NCBI RefSeq assembly: GCF_000016745.1 | Contig: NC_009483.1 | Location: forward strand, 930,001-962,000 | Direction of reading: 5' to 3' | Origin: Geotalea uraniireducens Rf4 | Lineage (GTDB): Bacteria > Desulfobacterota > Desulfuromonadia > Geobacterales > Geobacteraceae | Length of the DNA: 32,000 bases | Shown here: in pieces, positions 7,489 to 29,070 of the stretch | Layout: every line of letters begins with the position of its first letter | How positions within the stretch are numbered: position 1 is the stretch's first letter | The notes under the pieces: model-generated | What the model saw: only the letters and a program-made list of their open reading frames with translations | Told to the model about the DNA's origin: nothing | Database searches by the model: none | Made by a program: the position numbers and the translations under genes

Positions 7489-8325
7489 TCAATTCGTTAT
7501 TGACCGGTTCACGCGCGCATAACGCCGCGGCGATACTCCCAGCTCCTTGCGGAACATCTCGATGAAGGCGCTCAGGCTCTGGTACCCCAGATCGAAGGCG
7601 ATGCCCGTCACCTGCTCCCCCCGGTCCAGCCGGTCCAGCGCTTTGTGCAGCAAGAGGCGCTTGCGCCACCCCCCAAAGGTCAGTCCGGTCTCGCTGACGA
7701 AGAGCCGTGCCAGGGTGCGGCTACTGGCCCCGGCAATCTTCCCCCAGGCATCGAGACCGCGATTGTCGCCGGGGCTCTTCAGCAGAGCGTCAATCACCCG
7801 CATCACCCTCTCGTCCCGCGCCATCGGCAGGCGCAGCGGCGTCGCTTCGGCAATGCGCAACTCATCCAGCAGCACCTGCATCACCCGCCACTCTGCCCCA
7901 TCCGGCGCGTAGCTATTGCCGATCTGCACCGCTCTCAAAATCAGTTCGCGCAGAAGCGGTGCAACCTTCAGCACTGTGCACTGCAGCGGCAGACCGGTTA
8001 CTGCCGAGGGATCGACAAACAGGCTGCGCAAGGCGGTATCGCCGGGGAAATAGACCTCGTGCTCCTGATTGGGCGGTACCCAGACCGCCTGAGAGGGGGG
8101 GACCACCCAGACGTCCCGGCTGCAGATAACCCGCATCATCCCGCTGCTGGCGTAGATCAGTTGCCCCCGCGGATGGACATGGACCGCCGCACTCCCGATC
8201 TCCCGCGCCTGCATCTTCAGGGGGCTCACCTCAATTGCCAGCGAGATGACCGGCAGCTTTGCATCCAGCAGAAAGCCCTGCTCCACCGGCGGCAATCTTG
8301 TCAGTTTTGCGATATTCATTGGCAT
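7489..8325 (-). CDS. AraC/XylS-family transcriptional regulator with an N-terminal cupin domain
   Basis: The C-terminal dual HTH (SSRTLARLFVSETGLTFGGWRKRLLL ... IAFDLGYQSLSAFIEMFRKELGVSPRRY) is AraC-type. The N-terminal region has a cupin-like HxH segment. The start is uncertain (8325 or 8319; track start 8355) and there is no clear RBS. The last 11 codons are homologous to the class-B element (see findings). Confidence 0.85.
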   Translation of the reverse strand: MPMNIAKLTRLPPVEQGFLLDAKLPVISLAIEVSPLKMQAREIGSAAVHVHPRGQLIYASSGMMRVICSRDVWVVPPSQAVWVPPNQEHEVYFPGDTALRSLFVDPSAVTGLPLQCTVLKVAPLLRELILRAVQIGNSYAPDGAEWRVMQVLLDELRIAEATPLRLPMARDERVMRVIDALLKSPGDNRGLDAWGKIAGASSRTLARLFVSETGLTFGGWRKRLLLHKALDRLDRGEQVTGIAFDLGYQSLSAFIEMFRKELGVSPRRYARVNRSITN

Positions 8326-8439
8326 ACTATAGTAAGACAGCCAGATGAAAGTCAACTATACTGTTCATATCCACACGAAAAGGAGCACGCATATGATCCG
8401 TACCCATAAACAAGAGATCGTTGACCAAGAGGCACAGCC

Positions 8440-10580: not shown

Positions 10581-10609
10581 ATTGTATGTATTTTATATGC
10601 ATATGTCAA
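10581..10609 (-). promoter_or_regulatory. sigma70-type promoter of brnTA with a palindromic candidate operator
   Basis: The minus strand has TTGACA (10609-10604), a 17-nt spacer containing the palindrome ATATGCATAT, then TACAAT (10586-10581). The -35 box overlaps the MFS stop codon. Confidence 0.55.
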
Positions 10610-11892
10610 GGGTTGCCCCCACTGCCTCTCTGCACTTCTGACGCCGTCGCGGGCGTCGCATGGTGCTCGCTGCGGAAATGAAAATACGCCAAGGCCAGCG
10701 ATGCGGCTTGAAGCAGGGCGCAAAAATAGAACGGCGCGCCGATGCGCCAATCGCCGCGCTGCAAATGGGAAACCGTCGCAAGCAGCGGCGTGCTGAACAA
10801 GGGGGCCACTACCGCCATCAGGCTGTTCAGGGAGTTGACCGCCCCCAACGCCTGCCCCTGGCTTTGGGAGTCGGCGGCGCTGGAAATTATGCTTTGCAGC
10901 GACGCAGTAACCGTATAGCTAAGCAGATTCAGGAAGATTACTGCGTACATCATCCAGCCCTGGTTGGCTATGCCCCACAATATGTAGGCGATCGACGACG
11001 ACGCCAGTCCGGCAACCACAAGGCGTCGCGGACTAAAGCGTTTCAGCAGCCGTCCGAGCAGAAAACCCTGCACGACCAACGACATGATGCCGACCGCTGC
11101 GAGCGACCAGCCGTTTTCACGCGGTCCCCAGCCGAACTTGAAGGTCGTGTACAACACCCAACTGGTGAACAGCACGAATTGGGCAAGTCCGCTCAACGCA
11201 ACCACGGCGACCAATCGGCCGACACCGCTCAGCCGGGTCAGCGCGCGTAGCGACACGAGCGGGTTTGCCATCCGCCAGTGGAATGGGCGCCGGCGCTCGG
11301 CAGGGAGCGACTCGGGTAACACAAAATAGCCGTAGAGCCAGTTAATCATTGCAAAGGCGCCGGCGACGAAAAACGGGAGCTGTATGGTGATTGCGCCCAG
11401 CAGCCCGCCCATCACCGGCCCGACGATGAAGCCAACGCCGAACATCGCGCCCAACATGCCGAAACGCCTGGCACGCTCTTCGGGAACGGTGATATCCGCC
11501 ACATACGCGTTAGCCACGGCCGCATTGGCCTGCATCGCACCGCCCACCAGCCGCACCGCAATCAGCATCCACAACGCCGTGGAGAGCCCTGTTGCGAAAA
11601 AATTGAGGCCGAGTCCGCAAAAACCGAGCAAGAGCAACGGGCGGCGACCGTAAGCGTCGGACAGCGCACCGAGGATCGGCGAAGCGAAAAAATTCGCGAT
11701 TCCGAACGCGAACACCACGACGCCATACCAGAACGCCTGATTTGCTTGTGAGTCGGTGAAACTTCCGACCAACGACGGCAACACGGGAATGATCAAACCG
11801 ATAGACACCATGTCGATCAGCACGGTCAACATGATGAAAGGCATGGCCGCTGTGCGGTCGCGACGGGGCGAAAATAATTTGAAATTAATCAC
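10606..11892 (-). CDS. MFS efflux transporter, TetA/TCR-like (12 TM)
   Basis: MLTVLIDMVSIGLIIPVLPSLV and GALSDAYGRRPLLLLG (MFS motif A-like) resemble the TetA class. The start is uncertain: GTG at 11892 or ATG at 11844. The first 35 codons or so lie inside the 116-bp duplication. Confidence 0.85.
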   Translation of the reverse strand: MINFKLFSPRRDRTAAMPFIMLTVLIDMVSIGLIIPVLPSLVGSFTDSQANQAFWYGVVVFAFGIANFFASPILGALSDAYGRRPLLLLGFCGLGLNFFATGLSTALWMLIAVRLVGGAMQANAAVANAYVADITVPEERARRFGMLGAMFGVGFIVGPVMGGLLGAITIQLPFFVAGAFAMINWLYGYFVLPESLPAERRRPFHWRMANPLVSLRALTRLSGVGRLVAVVALSGLAQFVLFTSWVLYTTFKFGWGPRENGWSLAAVGIMSLVVQGFLLGRLLKRFSPRRLVVAGLASSSIAYILWGIANQGWMMYAVIFLNLLSYTVTASLQSIISSAADSQSQGQALGAVNSLNSLMAVVAPLFSTPLLATVSHLQRGDWRIGAPFYFCALLQAASLALAYFHFRSEHHATPATASEVQRGSGGNP

Positions 11893-11985: not shown

Positions 11986-12042
11986 CCCAATTCGGCTTCG
12001 CAAATGACCTGCACGATTCCGTGTCAGATCAATTTGTTGGTT
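11986..12042 (-). other. degenerate attC-like site closing the RsgA cassette
   Basis: Minus-strand reading: GAACCAAC aaat TGATCTGACACGG aatc GTGCAGGTCA tttgcgaagccga ATTGGGC. It shares CTGAC.CGG, GCAGGTCA and AGCCG..TTGG with the 13261-13329 site. The R'' box CCAAC complements the GTTGG that starts the cassette. The R' box has decayed from GTT to ATT. Confidence 0.35.
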
Positions 12043-12133
12043 CAATCGTATCCTTCTCTTCAGGTTCCAAGAGTTGGAATATTCTTTTGCTTGTAAATGT
12101 GAATATGTGAAGGGCGTCCCCTATGCATCTATC

Positions 12134-13216
12134 TTATTTACGTGTGATTCCCAGATCTTTCTTGGCAGACTTGATGTAGCGACCAAATGCCTTATCCTTT
12201 TTTCGCTTTTCAAGATACGACAGATCATGAAACTCTGATTCACTCCTGAGTTTGATAAAGTTCTGATAGTGTGCCCGATGGAGACTTCCTTCCTCAATTG
12301 CACTCAAAACAGCACAACCTGGTTCGTTAGAGTGAGAGCAATCACTATATTTGCATTTCGATGCTAACGCATAGATATCAGCAAAGCTGTCGCCCATTCC
12401 TTCCTCAGCTCCTAAAATGCCAAATTCACGCATTCCTGGGTTATCTATCAACATTGCACCATTATCCAATATTATGAGTTCGCGACGCACCGTCGTATGT
12501 CGTCCCTCGCCTGTACCACTTACCACCTTGGTTTCAAGTATATGACGGCCAATCAACTGGTTGATCAATGTACTCTTGCCAACCCCTGATGAACCTAAAA
12601 GACAGTAGGTTTTTCCGGGCTGTAGAATTTCACGTACATTATTAACACCTTCGCCGGTGACGTTACTAAGCGCGATTACCTCCGTATTTATTCCAGCACT
12701 TCTAATTTTTTCTATTAGTTGTTGGAGAGTTTCAGGACTGACCAGGTCAGTTTTTGTAAGTAAAACGACAGGATGTACATGCCCATTTCTAACCATTACC
12801 AAGTAACGCTCAAGCCTGTTAACATTGAAGTCGAAATGACAGGCCTGGACTATTAAGGCTACGTCAATATTCGAGGCAATCATCTGGTATTCAATGATAT
12901 CTCCTGCAGCCTTACGACGAAGAACCGACTTTCTAGGAATGACGTCATGAATTATTCCATACATGTCAGAGGTGCTGTATTGAATGCATACCCAGTCTCC
13001 AACACATGGAAGATCAATTGATTGCTCGGTCATATATAGAAAACGGCCGGCAAGCTTTGCGCGAAATTCACCAGACTCATCTATTACAAGAAGTTGATCA
13101 CGATCCACAGCAACAACACGTGCAAGACGGTGTTCTGCCGAGCCCTTTTCATGTGCCTTTGCATCAAACCATTCATCCCATCCAAATTGATTTAGTTGTT
13201 CAGAAGCAGAGCTCAT
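12134..13216 (-). CDS. rsgA: RsgA/YjeQ-family circularly permuted GTPase (cassette-borne paralogue)
   Basis: The motif order G4 LLTKTDL, G1 GSSGVGKSTLIN, G3 DNPGMREF is the RsgA circular permutation. The C-terminal zinc knuckle is CKYSDCSHSNEPGCAV. The preferred start is the ATG at 13216, 7 nt after GAGGT; the track start (GTG at 13261) lies inside the attC R' box. The gene is AT-rich. Confidence 0.8.
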   Translation of the reverse strand: MSSASEQLNQFGWDEWFDAKAHEKGSAEHRLARVVAVDRDQLLVIDESGEFRAKLAGRFLYMTEQSIDLPCVGDWVCIQYSTSDMYGIIHDVIPRKSVLRRKAAGDIIEYQMIASNIDVALIVQACHFDFNVNRLERYLVMVRNGHVHPVVLLTKTDLVSPETLQQLIEKIRSAGINTEVIALSNVTGEGVNNVREILQPGKTYCLLGSSGVGKSTLINQLIGRHILETKVVSGTGEGRHTTVRRELIILDNGAMLIDNPGMREFGILGAEEGMGDSFADIYALASKCKYSDCSHSNEPGCAVLSAIEEGSLHRAHYQNFIKLRSESEFHDLSYLEKRKKDKAFGRYIKSAKKDLGITRK

Positions 13217-13260
13217 TTGACATACCTCAAAATGTACAGATTTTTTTCTCATTACTTTCA

Positions 13261-13329
13261 CGCCAACGGCTCACGGCGTGACCTGCGCGGCGCTGTTTGC
13301 CGCGTCAGAGTCTACGCCGCGGGTTATGC
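13261..13329 (-). other. attC-like recombination site
   Basis: Minus-strand reading: GCATAAC ccgc GGCGTAGAC tctgac GCGGC aaacagc GCCGC gcag GTCACGCC gtgagcc GTTGGCG. The stop codon TAA of the upstream ORF lies inside the R'' box. The 46-nt core differs at 2 positions from the site at 13951-14018. Confidence 0.7.
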
Positions 13330-13950: not shown

Positions 13951-14018
13951 CGATAACGTGTCGTGGCGTGACCTGCGCGGCGGTGTTTGCCGCGTCAGTG
14001 TCTACGCCGGTGTTGGCA
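13951..14018 (-). other. attC-like recombination site
   Basis: Minus-strand reading: TGCCAAC accg GCGTAGAC actgac GCGGC aaacacc GCCGC gcag GTCACGCC acgacac GTTATCG. It begins 6 nt after the stop of the 477-aa ORF and ends 15 nt before the start of the next ORF. Confidence 0.7.
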
Positions 14019-15457: not shown

Positions 15458-15473
15458 TTCCTTCCTCGATTCA

Positions 15474-15566
15474 TGACAACTCCCTTATTCACCGGTTCAA
15501 CACGCGCGCATGAACCGGTGATCTACCCAAACGGAACATTTAATCTGTGAACATGAACAAAATAGA
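15474..15566 (-). other. class-B boundary element, copy 1 (palindrome-bearing, ends in GTTGTCA at the cassette start)
   Basis: Perfect 9-bp hairpin ACCGGTTCA acacgcgcgca TGAACCGGT. The 46-nt core at 15509-15554 is identical, apart from one position, to 24971-25016. The minus-strand 3' end GTTGTCA is a 6-of-7 complement of the R'' box TGCCAAC of the next attC-like site. Confidence 0.6.
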
Positions 15567-15567
15567 C

Positions 15568-16620
15568 TAAGGGTCAGGTCTACATTCTACACTTTTCAAA
15601 CTTTCCCTTTATCTTCTCGACCTTTCTTCCCAGCACCTCATCCGTCTCCATTTTCCTGACAAGCCTTCTGCTCGCTTCACTTATCGCCGTATCTCGTACG
15701 TTGAAGCGATCTCCTATTTCCTGAAGTCTCATTCCGCTGTATTTATGGCAAAGATAGATGCACACCTGCCTCGCTAGCTTTTCGTTGCCATGCAATGCCG
15801 CTATTGCTTCCTTCATGATTTCTTCCGGCGATGGCCTGTTGGCAAAATGCTTCAGCGCCGGAATATTCGCGTCTTCCTTTTCCCGGATATGCGCCGTTGA
15901 TATTTCATCTATAAAGTCGGCGCTCCCCAATATCGATCCACCGAAGATTTTGCTCAAAGGGCTTTCGTATTCTTTGCCGATCATATTTTCAACAAAGGTC
16001 CTGTACTTTTTCCGAGCGTCCGCTTCTTTCTTTGCAAAGCATCCTAGGATAAAACCGGTTCTCAGCCATGCTGGCGGTTTGCTTTGCCCAATGAAGCTTT
16101 GGTAGCTGGACCATTGGTAGTGCTCTGGCCTTTCGACGATTCCGGCTTTGACCGGGTTCAGGTGTATGTAGCGGGAAAGCTCCGCCAGGTATTCATCGGC
16201 CTCGACAAGGATCGCCTTGTATCTACCCTGGAACAGATGACCCGACCTCTTTCTTTTGACGTTGAAGTAGGTCGTGTATGCCCCGTTTATGTGTCGCATT
16301 ATCTGCGATAGGTTACCGGATGGTGTTTCCAGCAACAGATGGTAATGGTTGCTCATCAAACAATAGGCGTGAACTACCGCCCCGTACCGCTCCGTTGCCG
16401 ATGCAAGATATTCAAGAAACTTCTCCCGATCCCTCCGGCTTTTGAATATGTCCTTCTTTTCATTCCCACGCGACGTGACATGATAAAACGCTCCCGGATA
16501 CTCGATGCGTAAAGGTCGTGCCATTGCTCTCTCCTTTGAGCGATTGAGTGTAACGTATGGAGTTGCCCTCTATCATATCAAAGAATTCTGGTTTTGTGTA
16601 GAATGTAGACTTGACCCTTA
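15568..16620 (-). mobile_element. compact Y1-transposase element bounded by 25-bp inverted repeats
   Basis: IR-L at 15568-15592 is TAAGGGTCAGGTCTACATTCTACAC. The reverse complement of IR-R at 16596-16620 is TAAGGGTCAAGTCTACATTCTACAC, 24 of 25 identical. A single ORF lies inside, and its last codons are within IR-L. Confidence 0.7.
15580..16524 (-). CDS. IS200/REP-associated (RAYT-like) Y1 HUH transposase fused to a DnaA-domain-IV-like HTH
   Basis: YHVTSRGN, the HUH motif SNHYHLLLE, and the catalytic-Tyr region LSRYIHLNPVKAG. The C-terminal ARQVCIYLCHKYSGMRLQEIGDRFNVRDTAISEASRRL resembles the DnaA C-terminal DNA-binding domain. Confidence 0.85.
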   Translation of the reverse strand: MARPLRIEYPGAFYHVTSRGNEKKDIFKSRRDREKFLEYLASATERYGAVVHAYCLMSNHYHLLLETPSGNLSQIMRHINGAYTTYFNVKRKRSGHLFQGRYKAILVEADEYLAELSRYIHLNPVKAGIVERPEHYQWSSYQSFIGQSKPPAWLRTGFILGCFAKKEADARKKYRTFVENMIGKEYESPLSKIFGGSILGSADFIDEISTAHIREKEDANIPALKHFANRPSPEEIMKEAIAALHGNEKLARQVCIYLCHKYSGMRLQEIGDRFNVRDTAISEASRRLVRKMETDEVLGRKVEKIKGKFEKCRM

Positions 16621-19647: not shown

Positions 19648-22600
19648 CTAGAAATTCCCTAGAATGGTACCTGACTCTCCTACGACTACAAAATGGCCAC
19701 TCCCATCATATGAGACCCCGTTCAAGTTGTTCGTGGTATAGGAGGCTCTCTTCGTCCAAGTGACACCATCGGGCGAAGTCAAAAGGTATCCTGAATCCCC
19801 AACCACAACGAACTGGCCACCTCCATAGGATACGCCGGACAGTTTGCTGGTAGTCCCGGATGTGCGGCTTGTCCAGAGAATGCCATCATTCGAGGTCAGC
19901 ACGGTGCCAGCTTCGCCGACGGCGACATACTGGCCACCACCATAGGTTGCCCCATACAGTGAGTAGATAGTACCGGAAGCCCTGTTGGTCCAGGCCACGC
20001 CATCTGGTGATGTCAAAATGGAACCGCTTGCACCCACCGCAACAAACTGACCGCCACCATAGGTGACACGAACCAGGTTCTGTGTCGTCCCCGAAGCGCT
20101 GAGCGTCCAGGAAACGCCGTCGGGGGAGGTGAGGATCGCTCCTGCTGCACCGACCAAAACAAACTGGCCGCCTCCATAGGCGACGCCACTAGAGGAAGTC
20201 GCAGTAGTATGACCCGTCCATGTTACGGAATCAGGCGAAGTCAAGATAGAAGCCCAGGTCACCCCGAGATATATTCCGTTTCCATAGGCGATGTCGGTCA
20301 CGGGACTGCCCGAACTGCTATTGCGATCTGTCCAGGTGACACCATCGGGCGAGGTCATTATGACACCCTTACCTCCAGACCACCCGACTGTCACGAATTC
20401 GCTGCCGGTGAACATCACGCCGGATAGCTTGTTTGTTGTGCCGGAGGTGGACGCCCAGGTAGTGCCATTGGAGGATATAAGGACCGTTCCAGCGTCGCCG
20501 GTCGCCACTGACTGGCCGTTCACATTGTTCACGCCATTCAGGTTTTTCTGCGTGCCGGAGAAGTAATTGGTCCAGGTGATACCGTCAGGAGAGGTCTGGA
20601 TCGCGCCGCTTAGACCCACGGCAATGAACTGGGCGCCATCGTAGGTCACTGCGATGAAGCTCGGCTTGAAAGACATGCCTACCGAAGGCACCCAGGCCGC
20701 CGACTGTGTTGCCCAGTCGACGCCATTCAGGGAAGTCAGCACCGTCCCTGCATTTCCTACCGCGACAAATCGCCCACCTCCGTAGGTTACGCCGTTCAGG
20801 TTGATGGTCGTTCCCGAGGACCGGCTCGTCCACGTGACACTGTCGGCAGAAGTCAGGATGAGGCCGGAATTCCCGGAGACAACATACTGGTTACTGCCGT
20901 AGGTGATGTCGCGCAAATGCGTGGCTGTGCCGGAGGAACGGCCGGTCCAGACGATACCGTCGGCGGACGTCAGGATCGTGCCGGAGTTACCGACCACTAC
21001 AAACTGACCGCCGGTATAGATCGTTCCCGTCAAGTTGGCCGTGGTTCCAGAGGCTCTAATCTGCCAGGTTGCACCGTCACTGGAGGTCAGAATGACGCCC
21101 GAATCGCCGACTGCGACAAACTGGCCACCGCCATAAACCACACGAGTCAAATTGGCTGAAGTCCCGGAGTTTTGAATGCTCCAGTTGCTGCCGCTATCTG
21201 AAGTGGCGATAACTCCCGCAGTACCTACCGCAACAAATTTGCCCGCGCCGTAGGCGACGTTGTCCAGGTTGTTACCGCCGGTCCTTGGGCTGAGCCAGTA
21301 CCAGTTACTGACATTTATCGCCGATCCTCCAGTTGTGCCACCAGTGCCGCCGGTGTAGCCTCCGGAGTAACCGCTGCTACCGCCAGTACCGCCAGTACCG
21401 CCAGTACCGCCAGTGCCGCCGGAATTGCTGGAACCGCCACTGCCGGAAAAGACGGTTTCATCACTATGGTAGAAGCTACGGTAGAGTTGCCAGCTGGCAC
21501 CATCCGACTGGCTCCAGGCTATGGCTGTATCCCCGGTTCCATCCATGGCTACGTCGTAATTGACATAGTTCAGCTGGTCATTACTCACTGCCAGGAGGTT
21601 TTTATCGGTCCAGGAGCCGTTAAGGTACTGCATTGTATATACCTGCCAGTCTGCACCATTGGCCTGGTTCCAAAGGAGAATCCCATTGCCGCTGTGATCC
21701 ATTTTTATCAGGGGGCGGTTGGCCGAGGTCGCAGCAGAGCTGACTTGTCTGGGTGAATTCCATGTGCCTGCTCGCGATTCGACAATGACTATCTGCCACA
21801 GGTTATTAACCTTCTGTTGCCACGCTACGACGGCATTGCCGCGACTATCCATGGCAACACGGGGATAATCAGTTTCCGCACCGCCGGAATCGAGCAGAGC
21901 CGGACCGGTCCACGCACCATTGCGGTATTCGTTTCTGTAGGCGTGACGCTGGATGCCATCCTGCTGCCCCCACACGATGATAGCCTCGTTATTGCTGTCA
22001 AACGATAGCTGGAAATACGAATCCGGGTCCTGGCCTGCTATACTGACTATTTGCGGAGTACTCCAAAGTCCGTTTAAGCGTTGCCTGCTGAACAACTTGA
22101 CGTGAGTATAATAATGATCATTGTACTGCCAGGCTATTACCTGGTTCCCTTTTGAGTTCAGCGCCACCTTAGGGGAATTACAGCTACCCCCAGCTGAGAC
22201 CGCCACCGGATTGCTCCATGCACCGTCAGCATACTCCTTTGCGTAGATATTATCCTGTGACCATACTATAACGGCCCTGCCTTCGTCATTCATCGCGATT
22301 GACGGCGATAGGGATCCCGGAGAAAAGGACACGCCGGAAGCTGTAATCACTTGGGGCTGGCTCCAGAGCCCGTTCCGGTACTCCATCATTACTACTCCAG
22401 TTCCCCAATCCTCCCAGACCAGAACTGCATTGCCGTTGTTATCCATGGCAACCTTAGGCGAATAAACGTTAGAAGCGTTCCCGCTGACGACCCTAGGCTC
22501 GGTCCAGGTTCCATCAGCCAGTTGACTCATGACAATTTCATAATGGCTATTGGTGCTGTTATATCTCCACCACGCGACGATGGCGTTGCCGTGCTTATCC

Positions 22601-23070
22601 ATGGCTGTCACGGCACTATTTGCCTTGCCGAAGTTTTCTGTACTGTCCCACTGACTGGTTTTAGTTGTAAAGCCAGTGGTGTATTCTCCGGGCAGTGTGC
22701 CGCCGTAAATGCTTTTTATGGTGGCGGCGACTTTAACCGTGTATCTTCTGCCGGCGGAAAGCTTATTTTTCAGCTTCAAGGTGGCAGTATTGCCGTTTAC
22801 TACAACCGTATCAGCTTCGACTGGGAAGCCTTGGTCATCCTTTACAGCAATTGCACCAGCAGTAACCGTATTAGCATCCAGGTTTGCGTCAAAGGAAACT
22901 GTTATGTCGCCGGTCCTGGTTACCTCAGTAGCTCCGTCTACTGGGGTGACACTTGCTACCTTCAGCTCGACAGGCACAGGCGTAGAGGCGGTTCCGCTGG
23001 AACCGCCGCCACAGCCAAATAAAGAAATCGCCAGAGATATCAGTAGTAAAAAATCCAGTCGTTTTTTCAT
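19648..23070 (-). CDS. 1140-aa surface lipoprotein: Ig-like (SbsA/Big-like) domain plus two different beta-propeller-type repeat arrays joined by a Gly/Thr/Ser linker
   Basis: Lipobox LISLAISLFGC. The N-terminal VASVTPVDGATEVTRTGDITVSFDANLD is Ig-like. Next come repeats of the D..GNA.(I/V)VW type, then the linker GSGGSSNSGGTGGTGGTGGTGGSSGYSGGYTGGTGG. About 18-20 units of W(T/S)..(S)SGT...L.GV.YGGGQFVAVG..G.ILTS.DG..W follow, resembling Ycf48/BNR-like propeller blades. Confidence 0.85.
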   Translation of the reverse strand: MKKRLDFLLLISLAISLFGCGGGSSGTASTPVPVELKVASVTPVDGATEVTRTGDITVSFDANLDANTVTAGAIAVKDDQGFPVEADTVVVNGNTATLKLKNKLSAGRRYTVKVAATIKSIYGGTLPGEYTTGFTTKTSQWDSTENFGKANSAVTAMDKHGNAIVAWWRYNSTNSHYEIVMSQLADGTWTEPRVVSGNASNVYSPKVAMDNNGNAVLVWEDWGTGVVMMEYRNGLWSQPQVITASGVSFSPGSLSPSIAMNDEGRAVIVWSQDNIYAKEYADGAWSNPVAVSAGGSCNSPKVALNSKGNQVIAWQYNDHYYTHVKLFSRQRLNGLWSTPQIVSIAGQDPDSYFQLSFDSNNEAIIVWGQQDGIQRHAYRNEYRNGAWTGPALLDSGGAETDYPRVAMDSRGNAVVAWQQKVNNLWQIVIVESRAGTWNSPRQVSSAATSANRPLIKMDHSGNGILLWNQANGADWQVYTMQYLNGSWTDKNLLAVSNDQLNYVNYDVAMDGTGDTAIAWSQSDGASWQLYRSFYHSDETVFSGSGGSSNSGGTGGTGGTGGTGGSSGYSGGYTGGTGGTTGGSAINVSNWYWLSPRTGGNNLDNVAYGAGKFVAVGTAGVIATSDSGSNWSIQNSGTSANLTRVVYGGGQFVAVGDSGVILTSSDGATWQIRASGTTANLTGTIYTGGQFVVVGNSGTILTSADGIVWTGRSSGTATHLRDITYGSNQYVVSGNSGLILTSADSVTWTSRSSGTTINLNGVTYGGGRFVAVGNAGTVLTSLNGVDWATQSAAWVPSVGMSFKPSFIAVTYDGAQFIAVGLSGAIQTSPDGITWTNYFSGTQKNLNGVNNVNGQSVATGDAGTVLISSNGTTWASTSGTTNKLSGVMFTGSEFVTVGWSGGKGVIMTSPDGVTWTDRNSSSGSPVTDIAYGNGIYLGVTWASILTSPDSVTWTGHTTATSSSGVAYGGGQFVLVGAAGAILTSPDGVSWTLSASGTTQNLVRVTYGGGQFVAVGASGSILTSPDGVAWTNRASGTIYSLYGATYGGGQYVAVGEAGTVLTSNDGILWTSRTSGTTSKLSGVSYGGGQFVVVGDSGYLLTSPDGVTWTKRASYTTNNLNGVSYDGSGHFVVVGESGTILGNF
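21379..21414. repeat. 9-bp microsatellite (ACCGCCAGT)x4 inside the lipoprotein linker
   Basis: Four perfect tandem copies on the plus strand encode the TGG repeats of the linker. Confidence 0.9.
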
Positions 23071-23346
23071 TGTGCCCTCGGTACTAAATCGCGATTAGAT
23101 AATAAAGAAATAATTCAGACGCATCAAAAACTTCACTATTCATTTTCGGTGGCAACAACCGGGACGCCCATGAACATCGCTTACATCCGCTCAACCAACC
23201 CTCATAAGCTTTCTTGGCACTCAGTGAGGTCTCAGGCTTGGCCACGCTCTGCATCGAGAATCGTACCAGCAGTTGATTGAACCGGTAAGGACAAAAGAGT
23301 CAATGCAAATGCAGGTTTTAGTAAATGGCTTATTATTTTGTTTCCC

Positions 23347-23418
23347 ATCCAACGGGTCGGCAGTTGACCCGCTTGCCCGGCCTTTTCGGGCGGGCGGTGT
23401 CCAACTGTCTTGTTGGCA
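23347..23418 (-). other. attC-like recombination site
   Basis: Minus-strand reading: TGCCAAC aaga CAGTTGGAC accgcccgcccg aaaagg ccgggcaagc GGGTCAACTG ccgaccc GTTGGAT. It has nested inverted repeats (CAGTTG/CAACTG and GCCCG/CGGGC). The R'' box TGCCAAC is a 6-of-7 complement of the R' box GTTGGCG of the preceding site. Confidence 0.65.
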
Positions 23419-23534
23419 ATCCTCTTCTCGTTGCGCCTCTTTAAATGGAAAATGGAGATTGACCCTCCATTCCAGACCAAGTCGTATTAATCCTTACTGG
23501 TTATGTCGCCTTTCGCTTTATTGCCTCTCCATGA

Positions 23535-24419
23535 CTATGTAGCTCTAAAGGGTATGGTCGAGCAGCTCACTGCCGGACAGACTATATTCTGCGATTTCAG
23601 TAACATTTCTACGGACGCAGCGGACAGTGCCCTCTCAATTGTTGGACCAACATTGATTTCATCAATAATGAGATTTTCGCTTTGGAGAGACAGAGGTACT
23701 TCTAGGTAAGGCACGACCATAGACGTACCAGCTCGGAACTTTATGGCGCGTGAGCCTTGTTTTGTCTTCAGAGCGGCCATAATTCTCCACTCTTTCTCCT
23801 CAGCGAACTTCGGGTGTTTCAACAAAGGCGCCAGTTTTATGAACTCCAGCATGACATCAGAAAGAAGTCGCTTGGCTTTCTCGTCCCATGCCCTCTTCTT
23901 ATCAACCGAATTGCCGACGTCGTCGGCGAACCTTTTAGCGAGGTCTGACAGAAGCTTTTGTATCTCACTAATTTGTTCGTCCCGATCGTAGATAACTTTC
24001 TTGATCGAGAAACGGGCACTTTCGACTAAAACCTTAAGCCGGTCAAGGCTAAAACCCAGACTGAAACCCTGCCCAGTTCTGGAGTACCCTCGCCACTGGC
24101 TTAGAAGATCGCCTTCCTCCGAGAAAGAACAAACAAAAATACCTATCGTTTGAGAAGGTAACAGCGTATTTATGTTGTCCTCAAAACTCTCAAGAAAAAA
24201 ATGCCCTAATGATTTGTCCAACGTATCCGTCTTCGCAAACCCCTCGTTCGTCTTGCGAAATACAGTAAGTTCTTCCTTGAGAAGGTCTTTTGCGTAGAGA
24301 AGTTCACTGGCATCATTAAGATACAGGATATTTGTTGCCCATATAGACGCACTCTCGGTGATTCCGAGTAGGCCCTGTAATGAGGTGTAGTGAAAGAGCA
24401 TTCTATCTTTAGTTACCAT
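23535..24419 (-). CDS. DUF2971-family protein (cassette ORF)
   Basis: The ATG at 24419 follows GAGGGAAGGA (track start 24545 would run through the attC-like site). LFHYTSLQGLLGI ... ILYLNDASE ... LSQWRGYS matches my recollection of the DUF2971 pattern (hYHYT ... NDP.E ... W..Y). Confidence 0.7.
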   Translation of the reverse strand: MVTKDRMLFHYTSLQGLLGITESASIWATNILYLNDASELLYAKDLLKEELTVFRKTNEGFAKTDTLDKSLGHFFLESFEDNINTLLPSQTIGIFVCSFSEEGDLLSQWRGYSRTGQGFSLGFSLDRLKVLVESARFSIKKVIYDRDEQISEIQKLLSDLAKRFADDVGNSVDKKRAWDEKAKRLLSDVMLEFIKLAPLLKHPKFAEEKEWRIMAALKTKQGSRAIKFRAGTSMVVPYLEVPLSLQSENLIIDEINVGPTIERALSAASVEMLLKSQNIVCPAVSCSTIPFRAT

Positions 24420-24436
24420 ATCCTTCCCTCGCTTCT

Positions 24437-24496
24437 CGCCAACGGTGCCGAGGCGCACCAGCGCGTCAGCGTCTGCGTGCCGCCGAGTGGTTGTGT
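24437..24496 (-). other. attC-like recombination site
   Basis: Minus-strand reading: ACACAAC cactc GGCGGCACGCAGAC gctgac GCGCTGGTGCGCC tcggcacc GTTGGCG. It begins 4 nt after the stop of the 137-aa ORF. The R'' box ACACAAC is the exact reverse complement of GTTGTGT at 24938-24944. Confidence 0.65.
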
Positions 24497-24499
24497 GTC

Positions 24500-24913
24500 T
24501 CACTTCCAACGATGACCACAACTTTTGCAACCATACCTCTTCCAAAACAGAAGCAGTGGCAGCGAAATGAGAAGGGTAAGCGCTGCAAATTTTCTCGTGT
24601 AATTCTTTGTTTCTATTTCTGTCGCACCACAGACCGGGCAGGCGGAGTCCTCAAGGTGTTCTTCTGATTCCTCTGATGCCTCTGATGCCATAGATTCTGT
24701 GGTTTCCTCAAGAATTGCCTTTGCTTCTTCTGCATTTTCTTCAGGTACATTTAGCTTCACTCCACCCAAGGCGTTCGAGTAAAGCCAGTTGGCGCCAATA
24801 GTGAACTCGTTGTCGAGGAAGCAAGTGATTCCTGCCGACTCAAGCCTCGATTTGGCAAGGCCCGCTTCCGGTAGATCCCTAAACTGAGCAATTGTTATAA
24901 GTCCGCCCGCCAT
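24500..24913 (-). CDS. DUF2007-like N-terminal domain protein with an acidic linker and a TM-split zinc ribbon (cassette ORF)
   Basis: RBS AGAGGAA. The N-terminus ITIAQFRDLPEAGLAKSRLESAGITCFLDNE is like the putative signal-transducing DUF2007 fold. CPVCG ... TM helix (FAALTLLISLPLLLFW) ... CKSCGHRW. Confidence 0.7.
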   Translation of the reverse strand: MAGGLITIAQFRDLPEAGLAKSRLESAGITCFLDNEFTIGANWLYSNALGGVKLNVPEENAEEAKAILEETTESMASEASEESEEHLEDSACPVCGATEIETKNYTRKFAALTLLISLPLLLFWKRYGCKSCGHRWK

Positions 24914-24937
24914 TTATTTTCCTCTTTCTTTTTCATC

Positions 24938-25030
24938 ACACAACTCGTTATTGACCAGTTCACGCGCGCGCATGAACCGGTGATCTACCCAAACGGAATA
25001 TTTAATCTGTGAACATTAAAACATATTAGC
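24938..25030 (-). other. class-B boundary element, copy 2 (ends in GTTGTGT at the cassette start)
   Basis: Hairpin ACCAGTTCA cgcgcgcgca TGAACCGGT. The core is shared with copy 1. The minus-strand 3' end reads CAATAAC ga GTTGTGT. Confidence 0.6.
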
Positions 25031-25096
25031 AAAGCAACTGACCAGAAAACGGCCATCTTCCAAATTGCTTCCAAAGGATGTTGACAGGAAAACCGC

Positions 25097-26020
25097 TCAG
25101 TACGCCACTTCCCATATTCCGGAAGGCGACCGCACCACAATGAGGCGGGGCGGAAAGGCCACGGAAATAGCCATTGCAGCGCACATCCGGGCTTCGTCGC
25201 CTTTGATGCGTGCGAATGAGCTCTCGTCAAACGGGTAGAGAGGAGCGCCATCTTTGCGGCTGACTACAACTTCCGGATTCCCGGTCATGGCGAAATCGAG
25301 TTGATTCCGGGTCGGGGCCGCGACCCGTATGCCTGCCGCATACGCCTGATCGAGGCATCTTGATTTTTTTACCTCAACCGGGTTCATATTCGGATTTTTC
25401 CCCAGCAATTCGTAAATGTAAGCGAAATCCGGTTTGAATGCCTCCGCCCGTTTCTTCACAATAAGGGCCAGGCTTTTCTTGTCTTCATCGCTAAGCGAGG
25501 CCATTGGCGGATAATGGTGCCATGGAAGGTCGGCCGCGAAGTCCGCGACAAATTCGCGTTGTAACACAACCTTGCCCATCGTCTTTTTGTCCTCCTTGCC
25601 CGCGTCGCTCTGGTTGGTGGCTTGATAGCGTCCTCCCTCGCTTTTCTCGGTGGACTGGTCCATCACTGACACCCAGCTAATCTGCGCATTGTAAGGCTTT
25701 TTGGCATCGGCCGGCACGAACTCGATGCGGATCGAATTCTTGCCCTTGCGCAGCGCCGCCCCCAGCGAACTCGCAGGCACCCATATCGACGGCGAGATAT
25801 CGCGTTCCTCAAACAGGACCTGGACGTTATCTTTTCGCACCTCCTGCTCGGCGAACAAGACATTGTTGATAAAAACCCTGGCATTGCCCGGTACGGTTTC
25901 GACCTGATCGGACTTTAACGGATCGCCGACATAGGGCGTGAATTTGAACTCCACATTGATTACCCCGGCCGTAGCCACCGACGTCCAGAACAGGATTAGA
26001 AACAATGGTATTTTGTACAT
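25097..26020 (-). CDS. hypothetical exported protein (307 aa)
   Basis: Signal peptide MYKIPLFLILFWTSVATAG. No motif recognised. GC content is host-like. Confidence 0.7.
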   Translation of the reverse strand: MYKIPLFLILFWTSVATAGVINVEFKFTPYVGDPLKSDQVETVPGNARVFINNVLFAEQEVRKDNVQVLFEERDISPSIWVPASSLGAALRKGKNSIRIEFVPADAKKPYNAQISWVSVMDQSTEKSEGGRYQATNQSDAGKEDKKTMGKVVLQREFVADFAADLPWHHYPPMASLSDEDKKSLALIVKKRAEAFKPDFAYIYELLGKNPNMNPVEVKKSRCLDQAYAAGIRVAAPTRNQLDFAMTGNPEVVVSRKDGAPLYPFDESSFARIKGDEARMCAAMAISVAFPPRLIVVRSPSGIWEVAY

Positions 26021-28296: not shown

Positions 28297-28457
28297 ATCT
28301 CTTCGTCCGTTCAAAATTTCGGTAGAAAAGGGTTCAGGTTTTGAAGCGGGACAATGCGCCGTGTGAGCCCTGCTTCCATTCTCCCACTGAATTAAACATT
28401 AAACATCCGCGTAACTATTTGTTCTACATGAAGTATTGGCGTTGGATAACATTCCGG

Positions 28458-28487
28458 AAAGGATGTTGAGAGGAAAACCGCTCAACA
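28458..28487. repeat. perfect 10-bp-stem hairpin shared with 25073-25100
   Basis: GGATGTTGAG aggaaaaccg CTCAACATCC. Positions 25073-25100 read aaaGGATGTTGACaggaaaaccgCTCAG, the same 5' arm and loop with a decayed 3' arm. Confidence 0.6.
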
Positions 28488-28638
28488 TCCAGCGAGCATT
28501 TTCTCCGCAGCGCCTTTAATAAGAATCGAATATATAACTGAAGCAAATTATTTGCAAAGGAGAATTGACCAAAATAAATGATTGAGGAAATCGGAGGAGA
28601 TATTAAATCGGGGACGCTGCAGCCGTCTCCGGCTCGGC

Positions 28639-29070
28639 TCAGAAGAATTCCAGCAGGCTTTCGTCGATCCCCTTGAGTGTTTCGTACCAGAACTCCCGTG
28701 CGGCCTCGACCCTGTCCCGGTCGAACTTTTCGAGCCATTCCCCCAGCCGGGGGTCCTGCTCACGGTCGATCTCCTTTTTCCCGTGATTGTCCGTCGAGAG
28801 GCACTTTACCGGGCAGACCTCGACGCACAGGTTGCAGGTGCAGCACTTAAGCCGGTCGATCTGCCACGCCTTGCTCTCCTTGGTGACAACGATGGCGTAG
28901 GTCGGACAGCGCCTGCCGCACATGCCGCAGAAGATGCACCTGTCGATGGCGTTCTCTATCCTCCCCCGGGTGATGGCGGTAAAAATCCGCTCCCGTTGGG
29001 GATACATGAGGGTGGCCGGCCCTGTGACCAGGTTTTTAGTTACCGTTTTCGTCATCGTGAAAATTTTCAT
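28639..29070 (-). CDS. 2x[4Fe-4S] ferredoxin-type hydrogenase subunit (EchF/HycF/NuoI-like)
   Basis: CIFCGMCGRRCP and CCTCNLCVEVCP cluster motifs. It follows the hydrogenase large subunit directly. Confidence 0.8.
   Translation of the reverse strand: MKIFTMTKTVTKNLVTGPATLMYPQRERIFTAITRGRIENAIDRCIFCGMCGRRCPTYAIVVTKESKAWQIDRLKCCTCNLCVEVCPVKCLSTDNHGKKEIDREQDPRLGEWLEKFDRDRVEAAREFWYETLKGIDESLLEFF

Follow-up and report, generated by a model that had tools for sequence, protein, structure and literature searches.

Does the DNA between a gene for a 307-amino-acid (aa) protein and a lipoprotein gene of Geotalea uraniireducens Rf4 hold a genuine array of integron gene cassettes, and what is the short element that stands at its head? 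The locus lies in a stretch of 32,000 nucleotides (nt) of contig NC_009483.1 (positions 930,001 to 962,000), which is referred to here as the window and to which all coordinates refer. An original prediction, made from the letters of the DNA and their translations, had read the locus as a mini-array composed of a repeated element named class-B, a cassette with a DUF2007 gene, an attC site, a cassette with a DUF2971 gene and a second attC site. The comparative evidence presented here supports that interpretation. The locus is very probably a genuine two-cassette integron array devoid of an integrase, that is, a cluster of attC sites that has no integron integrase (CALIN), in which each cassette consists of a promoter-less open reading frame (ORF) and its own attC site. 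The class-B leader is the sole element that falls outside existing categories.

All genes of the region are on the minus strand, in the order 307-aa gene, class-B, DUF2007 gene, site A, DUF2971 gene, site B and lipoprotein gene. A protein search identified the 294-aa ORF as Gura_0798 of Geotalea (Geobacter) uraniireducens Rf4 (100% identical protein; 5.14-Mb replicon). The array is made up as follows:

24944..25038, minus strand: class-B copy 2, the array leader and putative docking site
24443..24943, minus strand: cassette 1, 501 bp, from TTGTGT... to the G of the R' box GTTGGCG
24500-24913, minus strand: DUF2007 protein, 137 aa
24437..24496, minus strand: attC site A, 60 nt
23353..24442, minus strand: cassette 2, 1090 bp, from TTGGCG... 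to the G of the R' box GTTGGAT
23535-24419, minus strand: DUF2971 protein, 294 aa
23347..23418, minus strand: attC site B, 72 nt

Cassette boundaries

The five 7-mer boxes on which the prediction was built are all present at the coordinates claimed for them. GTTGTGT (24944-24938), at the class-B junction, is the exact reverse complement of the R'' box of site A (ACACAAC, 24496-24490). The R' box of site A (GTTGGCG, 24443-24437) is complementary at 6 of 7 positions to the R'' box of site B (TGCCAAC, 23418-23412), and the R' box of site B is GTTGGAT (23353-23347). The start of each cassette in this array thus agrees with the complement of its own R'' at 7/7 and 6/7. When this rule was applied to nine cassettes (seven of them independent), agreement was found at 31 of 36 variable box positions, for which the chance probability is about 2e-14 at p=0.25. 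Both sites lie at the 3' end of a co-oriented ORF. Site B begins 116 nt after its TAG stop and site A 3 nt after its TGA stop. The start codons of cassettes 1 and 2 lie 30 nt and 23 nt past the G of the upstream GTT.

Cassettes in other contexts

The comparative evidence, which rests on alignment of homologous loci (designated here by L numbers), is decisive for reading these boundaries as those of cassettes. Homologs of the DUF2007 protein with 93-96% identity were found in metagenomes, and cassette 1 with site A was present in four contexts (the window, L059, L094/L095 and L096) that differ in upstream sites and in downstream genes. In all of them homology starts at GTTGTGT and stops at CACC-GTTG. 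The block GTTGTGTGATGAAAAAG... is conserved in L059 through the DUF2007 ORF and site A. Upstream of GTTGTGT, where the window has class-B, L059 carries another well-folding attC (ATTCAAC...CTTATCAC-GTTGTGT, z -4.67), and past CACC-GTTG it has a different ORF followed farther on by a toxin-antitoxin-like pair. Cassette 1 lies behind a third upstream site (...CGGCCCC-GTTGTGT) in L094/L095 and L096; site A is truncated in L094, and a DUF2284 gene follows CACC-GTTG in L096.

Cassette 2 behaves in the same way. It recurs in L057 with about 99% DNA identity over about 1 kb, in an alignment that begins at CACC-GTTG; upstream of it, L057 has another ORF, which carries an attC-like site of its own (GCATAAC...GTTGTCA). 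More distant DUF2971 relatives (73-75% identity; L054/L055 and L058) are followed by textbook attC sites: ACATAAC-ATTCT-...-GTTAGGT in L054/L055 and ACATAAC-CACAG-CGTC(C)ACCCG...CGGGTGACG-CTCGT-GTTGGGC in L058. The extra top-strand C of the L058 site gives the canonical bottom-strand G, and the L058 cassette start, GTTATGT, is the exact complement of its own R''. Polymorphism is therefore precise to the boundary, and the conserved content and order that would speak against a cassette array was not what the comparison returned. As judged from these loci, both cassettes are independently mobile units of an ORF and an attC.

It could be argued that the two genes form one two-gene system or operon, in which the DUF2007 protein is a partner or antitoxin of a DarT-like DUF2971 protein and site A is an intergenic hairpin or part of a longer DUF2971 ORF. 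On the Logan contigs, gene callers predict a DUF2971 ORF of 322 aa, with a GTG that overlaps the stop of the DUF2007 gene (GTGA), the GenBank version of Gura_0798 has 307 aa, and a DarT-like toxin would be expected to need an antidote. However, RefSeq and the homologs use an ATG start that yields 294 aa, and the N-terminal extension lacks conservation. Loci L054, L056, L057, L058, L059, L060, L094/96 and L097 carry one gene without the other, and site A stays with the upstream gene while the neighbour switches exactly at the site A GTT. The co-occurrence check that had been proposed was run and was negative: the genes are adjacent solely in contigs of the same strain (L001-L003) and are never neighbours in L054, L056, L057, L058, L059, L060 and L094-L099, which represent about eight independent contexts. 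Because the two genes never co-occur elsewhere, separate cassettes are favoured over an operon, which is thereby largely refuted and to which we assign only a minute probability. With respect to the gene model, the 307-aa and 322-aa versions of Gura_0798 (24420-24503) start inside or upstream of site A and read through it. All DUF2971 homologs have their start near MxxxxKILYHYTS, which favours the 294-aa version beginning at 24419, as does RefSeq.

Architecture of the attC sites

Conserved AAC/GTT triplets close both imperfect palindromes, and the lengths of 60 nt and 72 nt are within the attC range of 57-141 nt. On its top strand, site B reads TGCCAAC-AAGAC-GTTGGAC...GTCAAC-...-GTTGGAT, which is the classical layout of R'', 5 nt, L'' (GTTGGAC), L' (GTCAAC) and R'. 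The extra base in its L'' is at the same position as the extra base of attC_aadA7. For both sites the + strand (the bottom one with respect to the genes) was folded as DNA under the constraint that the AAC/GTT triplets pair. Site A formed a 4-bp R box, an unpaired spacer (5 nt) and a 13-bp stem with three single-base bulges; in site B the R box has 8 bp and the stem, with two bulges, 20 bp. In these constrained folds all bulges are on the 3' arm of the bottom (+) strand, and such strand asymmetry is a defining attC trait (Cury et al., PMC4889954). The attC architecture and the position of the crossover are shown by the data for this locus. The unconstrained fold of site B was far better than that of its shuffles (z -3.73).

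A structural attC scanner was written around generic attC features (Rfam holds no attC model) and run on both strands of the 32 kb. It returned exactly four matches: sites A and B and two sites of a first array in the window (13261-13329 and 13951-14018), all on the same strand and each directly after an ORF. Twelve dinucleotide shuffles gave 0-2 matches (mean 0.58). This result is supporting evidence, not proof. The sites also have relatives elsewhere. A homolog of site A follows an unrelated 306-aa ORF in L077, and homologs of site B are found in L085 and L082, in arrays headed by class-B. By these alignments, each of the two sites is a member of an attC sequence family that also occurs behind unrelated ORFs.

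Several observations weigh against reading the locus as a genuine cassette array. Folded without constraint, site A is no better than shuffled sequence (z +0.29), and its extrahelical base at the L box is C, as in site B, instead of the usual G; the first-array sites have T there. The scanner is weak: on control class 1 integrons, fetched using IntI1, it detected two of six genuine sites, recovering only the aacA4 attC, and gave two false matches across 39 kb. Ten external attC sites, aligned with MAFFT as the basis of an independent covariance model, had their paired columns out of register, and the model was abandoned. Cassette 2 of the window departs from that of L057 at four positions within its first ~13 nt, the remainder being about 99% identical. 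As to the leader, class-B has no predicted sigma-70 consensus promoter and no R'' AAC, and it never adjoins an integrase in the sampled loci.

The lack of extra stability in site A would also be expected if sites A and B were ordinary terminators or species-specific palindromes of the repetitive extragenic palindromic (REP) type, with box matches that are coincidental. Both are GC-rich hairpins directly downstream of ORFs, and the genome carries REP-like repeats and a gene resembling those for REP-associated tyrosine transposases (RAYT). Against this stand the absence of a T-run after either hairpin, the AAC/GTT triplets that close each of them and the bulges confined to one arm. Moreover, cassette starts follow R'' at the 31 of 36 positions noted above, and gene content switches exactly at GTT in several contigs. 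We regard terminators or REP palindromes as an extremely improbable account of the two sites.

Integrase and status of the array

No IntI homolog was found in the 32-kb window by tblastn with IntI1 (a query sequence 100% identical to plasmid copies), and no integrase was found in Pfam scans of neighbouring genes. The array is without an integrase for 23 kb on one side and 7 kb on the other. Complete integrons have intI, the gene for a tyrosine recombinase with the IntI-specific insertion, adjoining the array, which is not the case in the window. Sites A and B are about 1 kb apart, and the definition of a CALIN asks for two or more attC sites within 4 kb in the absence of a nearby integrase. 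Since there is no integrase in the 32 kb, the locus is classified as a CALIN. Like other CALINs (PMC4889954), it has a pair of co-oriented attC sites, separated by about 1 kb and each preceded by a promoter-less ORF. In contrast to the CALIN definitions, from which such an element is absent, the present array begins at a conserved non-attC element, class-B, that heads other arrays too.

Two-attC CALINs are the commonest size class (10.1101/2022.09.11.507474), and other Geobacteraceae are known to possess integrons, integrases and attC sites (PMC2426708, PMC3001079, PMC11434368). A specific report of an integron in strain Rf4 was not found in the literature. The finding shows that, in an environmental metal-reducer, small cassette arrays without an integrase are genuine products of integrons that were shuffled recently, as opposed to noise of annotation.

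The array might alternatively be the decayed remnant of a once larger sedentary chromosomal integron, from which the integrase and the true attI have been lost or have moved away, with no insertion at a genomic docking site. As in sedentary integrons (e.g., the Vibrio cholerae repeats, VCRs, of Vibrio), site A and site B are each members of an attC family whose near-identical sites stand behind unrelated ORFs (L077, L085, L082, L072). In addition, two arrays lie 9 kb apart, and the first is within a 4,980-bp block that has 116-nt perfect repeat flanks and a transposase-like gene. The differences are that several attC families occur together here, that the arrays are tiny and that no intI is linked; no intI remnant was found in the 32 kb. 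The two arrays are short, with a separate class-B copy at the start of each, and class-B heads arrays in many unrelated contexts. Small CALINs have also been argued to arise via attG insertion (10.1101/2022.09.11.507474). We therefore consider the origin from a sedentary integron rather doubtful.

The class-B leader

The window contains two class-B copies. The resemblance between them that had been noticed at the outset was borne out (95% over 58 nt, copy 1 at 15500-15557), and its full extent is about 24944-25030 for copy 2 and 15473-15565 for copy 1. Copy 2 ends ...AATAACGAG/TT, with its G at 24944 (the slash marks the break). The element contains a palindrome headed by GTAG (CACCGGTTCA..TGAACTGGT), which is perfect (GTAGATCACCGGTTCAC...GTGAACCGGTGATCTAC) in L071, L072 and L076. 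An exact 20-mer from the core is present in 29 metagenome contigs of the Joint Genome Institute (JGI), and the aligned copies share ...ATGTTCACAGACTAAATGTTCCGTTTGGGTAGATCACCGGTTCAC-GCGCGCGC-GTGAACCGGTCAATAACGAG. No Rfam match to class-B was found at gathering or E<=10 thresholds.

Conservation stops at G/TT in 21 of 31 copies and is followed by TT and unrelated sequence, so that the junctions vary (GTTGAAC, GTTGGTC, GTTGGAA, GTTATCG and others). A ribosome-binding site and a start codon lie 15-35 nt past the junction. Co-oriented attC sites were found downstream of class-B in L069, L072, L077, L082, L084 and L085 and none upstream. The one in L072 is homologous to the attC upstream of cassette 1 in L059, and in L084 the R'' of the first attC is complementary at every position to the junction, GTTGGAA. 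That class-B recurs at the head of arrays is evident from the contigs compared. Its part would be that of a docking site, an attI- or attG-like partner at which cassettes insert; it is not itself an attC.

As at attI, all that class-B contributes is the G with what lies 5' of the crossover, and the TTNNNN of the cassette follows. Its motif AAC-GA-GTT resembles the inverted L/R simple site of attI1. The difference is that attI adjoins intI and class-B does not, in any sampled locus. A complete integron has attI and a Pc promoter; class-B is located at the place of attI but lacks a sigma-70 consensus promoter. Class-B next to intI was looked for among its upstream ORFs, and these were unrelated in 17 cases (ISL3-type transposase, IstB, helicase, WYL, SWIM and others). 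The sole tblastn match to IntI1 among the class-B loci is a tyrosine recombinase in L067, downstream of class-B, whose N-terminus resembles the IS91-associated type and not IntI. Genomic attG insertion sites need only GWT and can seed CALINs as well as single attC sites lacking integron integrases (SALINs) (Loot et al., 10.1101/2022.09.11.507474). Unlike attG, which is unconserved, class-B consists of roughly 100 nt conserved across many metagenomes, with a REP-like palindrome and homology to the 3' end of an AraC gene.

This last homology involves the final ~75 nt of class-B and the 3' end of the intact AraC/HTH_18 gene at 7489-8355 on the minus strand (29 nt at 93%, 7489-7575, plus ATGTTCCG). 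The two are related by an in-frame 6-nt gap, class-B reading MFRLGRSPVHARA followed by a stop and the AraC gene ...MFRKELGVSPRRYARVNRSITN followed by a stop. The mini-ORF of class-B thus mimics the AraC C-terminus.

Alternatively, class-B might be no integrase substrate at all but a REP, or else the right terminus of an insertion sequence (IS) of the IS200/IS605 type (Y1/RAYT), next to which arrays lie by chance or with which they ride along. The GTAG at the foot of an imperfect GC-rich palindrome recalls REP/RAYT (TnpA_REP) systems, copy 1 adjoins a gene of the Y1_Tnp family with a DnaA_C helix-turn-helix (HTH) domain, and the upstream context of class-B varies. Its conservation ends about 10-12 nt 3' of the hairpin, as is the case for IS200/IS605 right ends. 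REP/RAYT systems have such palindromes in many copies per genome, which flank a RAYT gene as inverted pairs; class-B has only two copies in the 32 kb. In contrast to REP elements, class-B is conserved about 45 nt past the palindrome and across distant samples, and its junction is integrase-like. A Y1 transposase was not found upstream in the 29 metagenome loci. The break is at G/TT, and the 7-mer after it matches the R'' of the first downstream attC (7/7 and 6/7 in the window, 7/7 in L084), which is a signature of integrase insertion. Finally, attC sites lie only downstream of class-B and are co-oriented with it. A REP or IS end is accordingly an unlikely identity for class-B.

A more specific proposal, which we put forward as possible and tentative, is that class-B is an undescribed and widespread portable docking module. 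It would be ~100-115 nt long, bounded by GTT, derived from the 3' end of an AraC-family gene and provided with a REP-like palindrome, and it would seed integrase-less arrays in Geobacterales and related anaerobes. It could be a mobile attI or proto-attI; or it could be a cassette that has no ORF and whose attC is atypical, without R''. An upstream GTTG is present about 113 nt before the junction in 9 of about 19 aligned class-B loci. Class-B is the more useful lead from this locus, as it opens to direct test the founding of CALINs and the question whether attI-like sites can originate in short repeated elements or disseminate in that form.

Other features were seen around the element. A degenerate class-B 3' end (e.g., CTGGTCAATAACG-GTTG) lies just upstream of class-B in L082, L067, L075 and L071, which suggests tandem insertion of the class-B module into a like site; the module may itself be cassette-like. 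A hairpin, CCCCGTGTTACTGAAACGGGG, is conserved about 90 nt upstream of the class-B hairpin in L064, L065, L077, L078 and L089, and the element may be longer or composite. Class-B and the 3' flank of the 307-aa gene were also considered as one long attC (24936-25085), and this candidate was rejected on its fold (z +1.15).

Assembly of the array

The array could have been assembled as follows. An integron integrase, encoded elsewhere or lost, would fold the bottom strand of attC (the + strand of the window) into a hairpin with an R box (AAC/GTT), an unpaired spacer and an L box with extrahelical bases. It would cut R' between G and TT and join the cassette to the docking site. Class-B, which ends ...AATAACGAG/TT, would be that docking site, and cassettes would enter at G/TT. 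We infer IntI as the enzyme, and we do likewise for the mode of cassette expression and the roles of the cargo.

If the cassettes entered at the class-B G/TT, the last attC carries the original flank (TTGGAT...). The empty site predicted under de novo cassette insertion would read ...CTGGTCAG/TTGGATGGG..., and the empty site predicted before class-B and the cassettes were inserted at a genomic GTT would read ...TGGCCGTTTTCTGGTCAG/TTGGATGGGAAACAAAATAA. Geobacter sp. OR-1 was the nearest genome available for comparing synteny, but only the 307-aa gene is common to both, and it offered no empty-site comparison.

Cargo proteins

Pfam scans found the two families named in the original prediction. 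The 294-aa protein matches PF11185 (DUF2971) with an E of 3.8e-15 and 57.4 bits against a cutoff of 22. In a homolog alignment H10 is nearly invariant, and Y112, E208 and E210 (ExE) are invariant. DUF2971 has been assigned to the H-Y-E clade of ADP-ribosyltransferases (PMC12522546), and the motifs found here agree. The AlphaFold2 (AF2) model has a predicted local distance difference test score (pLDDT) of 90.1, and its four best matches in PDB are DarT toxins, followed by tRNA 2'-phosphotransferase. These structural scores are weak (E 0.009-0.024, probability 0.85-0.91, template modelling (TM) score 0.3-0.46). The protein shares with DarT, the toxin of DarTG, the top fold matches and the conserved H, Y and ExE motifs, but it differs in having large helical inserts and no DarG-like macrodomain partner. 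It also matches the PADLOC candidate PDC-S31 (E 4e-8), and a 68% homolog is found in a defence island with restriction, AIPR, AAA_15 and GmrSD genes. As modelled, DUF2971 is probably a DarT-like ADP-ribosyltransferase, predicted to be a toxin or a phage-defence effector. A recent view holds that integron cassettes are stores of defence genes (10.1101/2024.07.02.601686), and the DUF2971 cargo fits it.

The 137-aa protein matches PF09413 (DUF2007; E 5.7e-10) and consists of an N-terminal DUF2007 domain, an acidic linker and a zinc ribbon. The ribbon (CPVCG/CKSCG) is split by a hydrophobic segment, and its Cys pairs are nearly invariant among 35 aligned homologs. Its AF2 model has a pLDDT of 68.6, with values of 77-91 in the N-terminal domain and a poorly predicted C-terminus. 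In a homolog search, the family was restricted to bacteria of the Geobacter/Desulfuromonas type. The linker in the window (about 24670-24690) has a tandem duplication of three residues, ASE, that is absent in 34 of 34 aligned homologs. A sequence search of PDB returned nothing for either cargo protein. The array adds two cargo types, a DarT-like DUF2971 enzyme that represents a candidate single-gene phage-defence family and a membrane-anchored DUF2007 zinc-ribbon protein.

Flanking genes and the first array

The array is bordered by the following features:

25097-26020, minus strand: 307-aa protein, no Pfam match
25039..25055, minus strand: terminator-like hairpin of the 307-aa gene; the GTTG right after it is the upstream edge of the class-B module
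23232..23348, minus strand: 38-codon signal-peptide-like stub after the last R'
19648-23070, minus strand: Big_5 lipoprotein, 1140 aa

The stub had been taken for a truncated third cassette. The 38-codon ORF with a signal-peptide-like sequence does exist, but its reading as a truncated cassette is unsupported, as no homologs were found and none of the fetched loci resembles it. Small signal-peptide ORFs follow several other class-B copies as well. What comes after GTTGGAT may be original flank: if cassettes entered at the class-B G/TT, TTGGAT... is the sequence that originally followed class-B, and a truncated cassette is not needed.

Relatives of the 307-aa protein with 48-58% identity occur in Verrucomicrobiota, Spirochaetes, Accumulibacter and Methylococcaceae. 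Conserved synteny of its gene was not found in the loci sampled (L004-L053), even against Geobacter sp. OR-1 (80% identity), and the gene is probably itself horizontally mobile. A 27-nt repeat (96%) is located at its stop (25073-25099) and at the 3' end of the ORF at 28424-28738 (28458-28484).

The two attC sites of the first array are 81% identical. The last gene of that array (an RsgA-like GTPase, 12134-13261) has no recognisable attC after it (12000-12133), only a weak TTCCAAC box. The 116-nt perfect direct repeat (11789-11904/16769-16884) contains the 5' end of a major facilitator superfamily (MFS) transporter gene (10606-11892) and brackets the 4,980-bp block, which includes the first array, class-B copy 1 and the RAYT-like gene. 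The block looks like a recent insertion or duplication that moved the whole first array. The Y1_Tnp (IS200-like) and DnaA_C HTH protein that immediately adjoins class-B copy 1 has 314 aa (15580-16524, minus strand). Its gene is flanked by 25-nt inverted repeats (15568-15592 and 16596-16620; 96% complementary) that are distinct from class-B. Elsewhere in the window, two tandem cobalamin riboswitches are present on the minus strand at 1437-1611 and 1706-1897 (68.5 and 109.9 bits).

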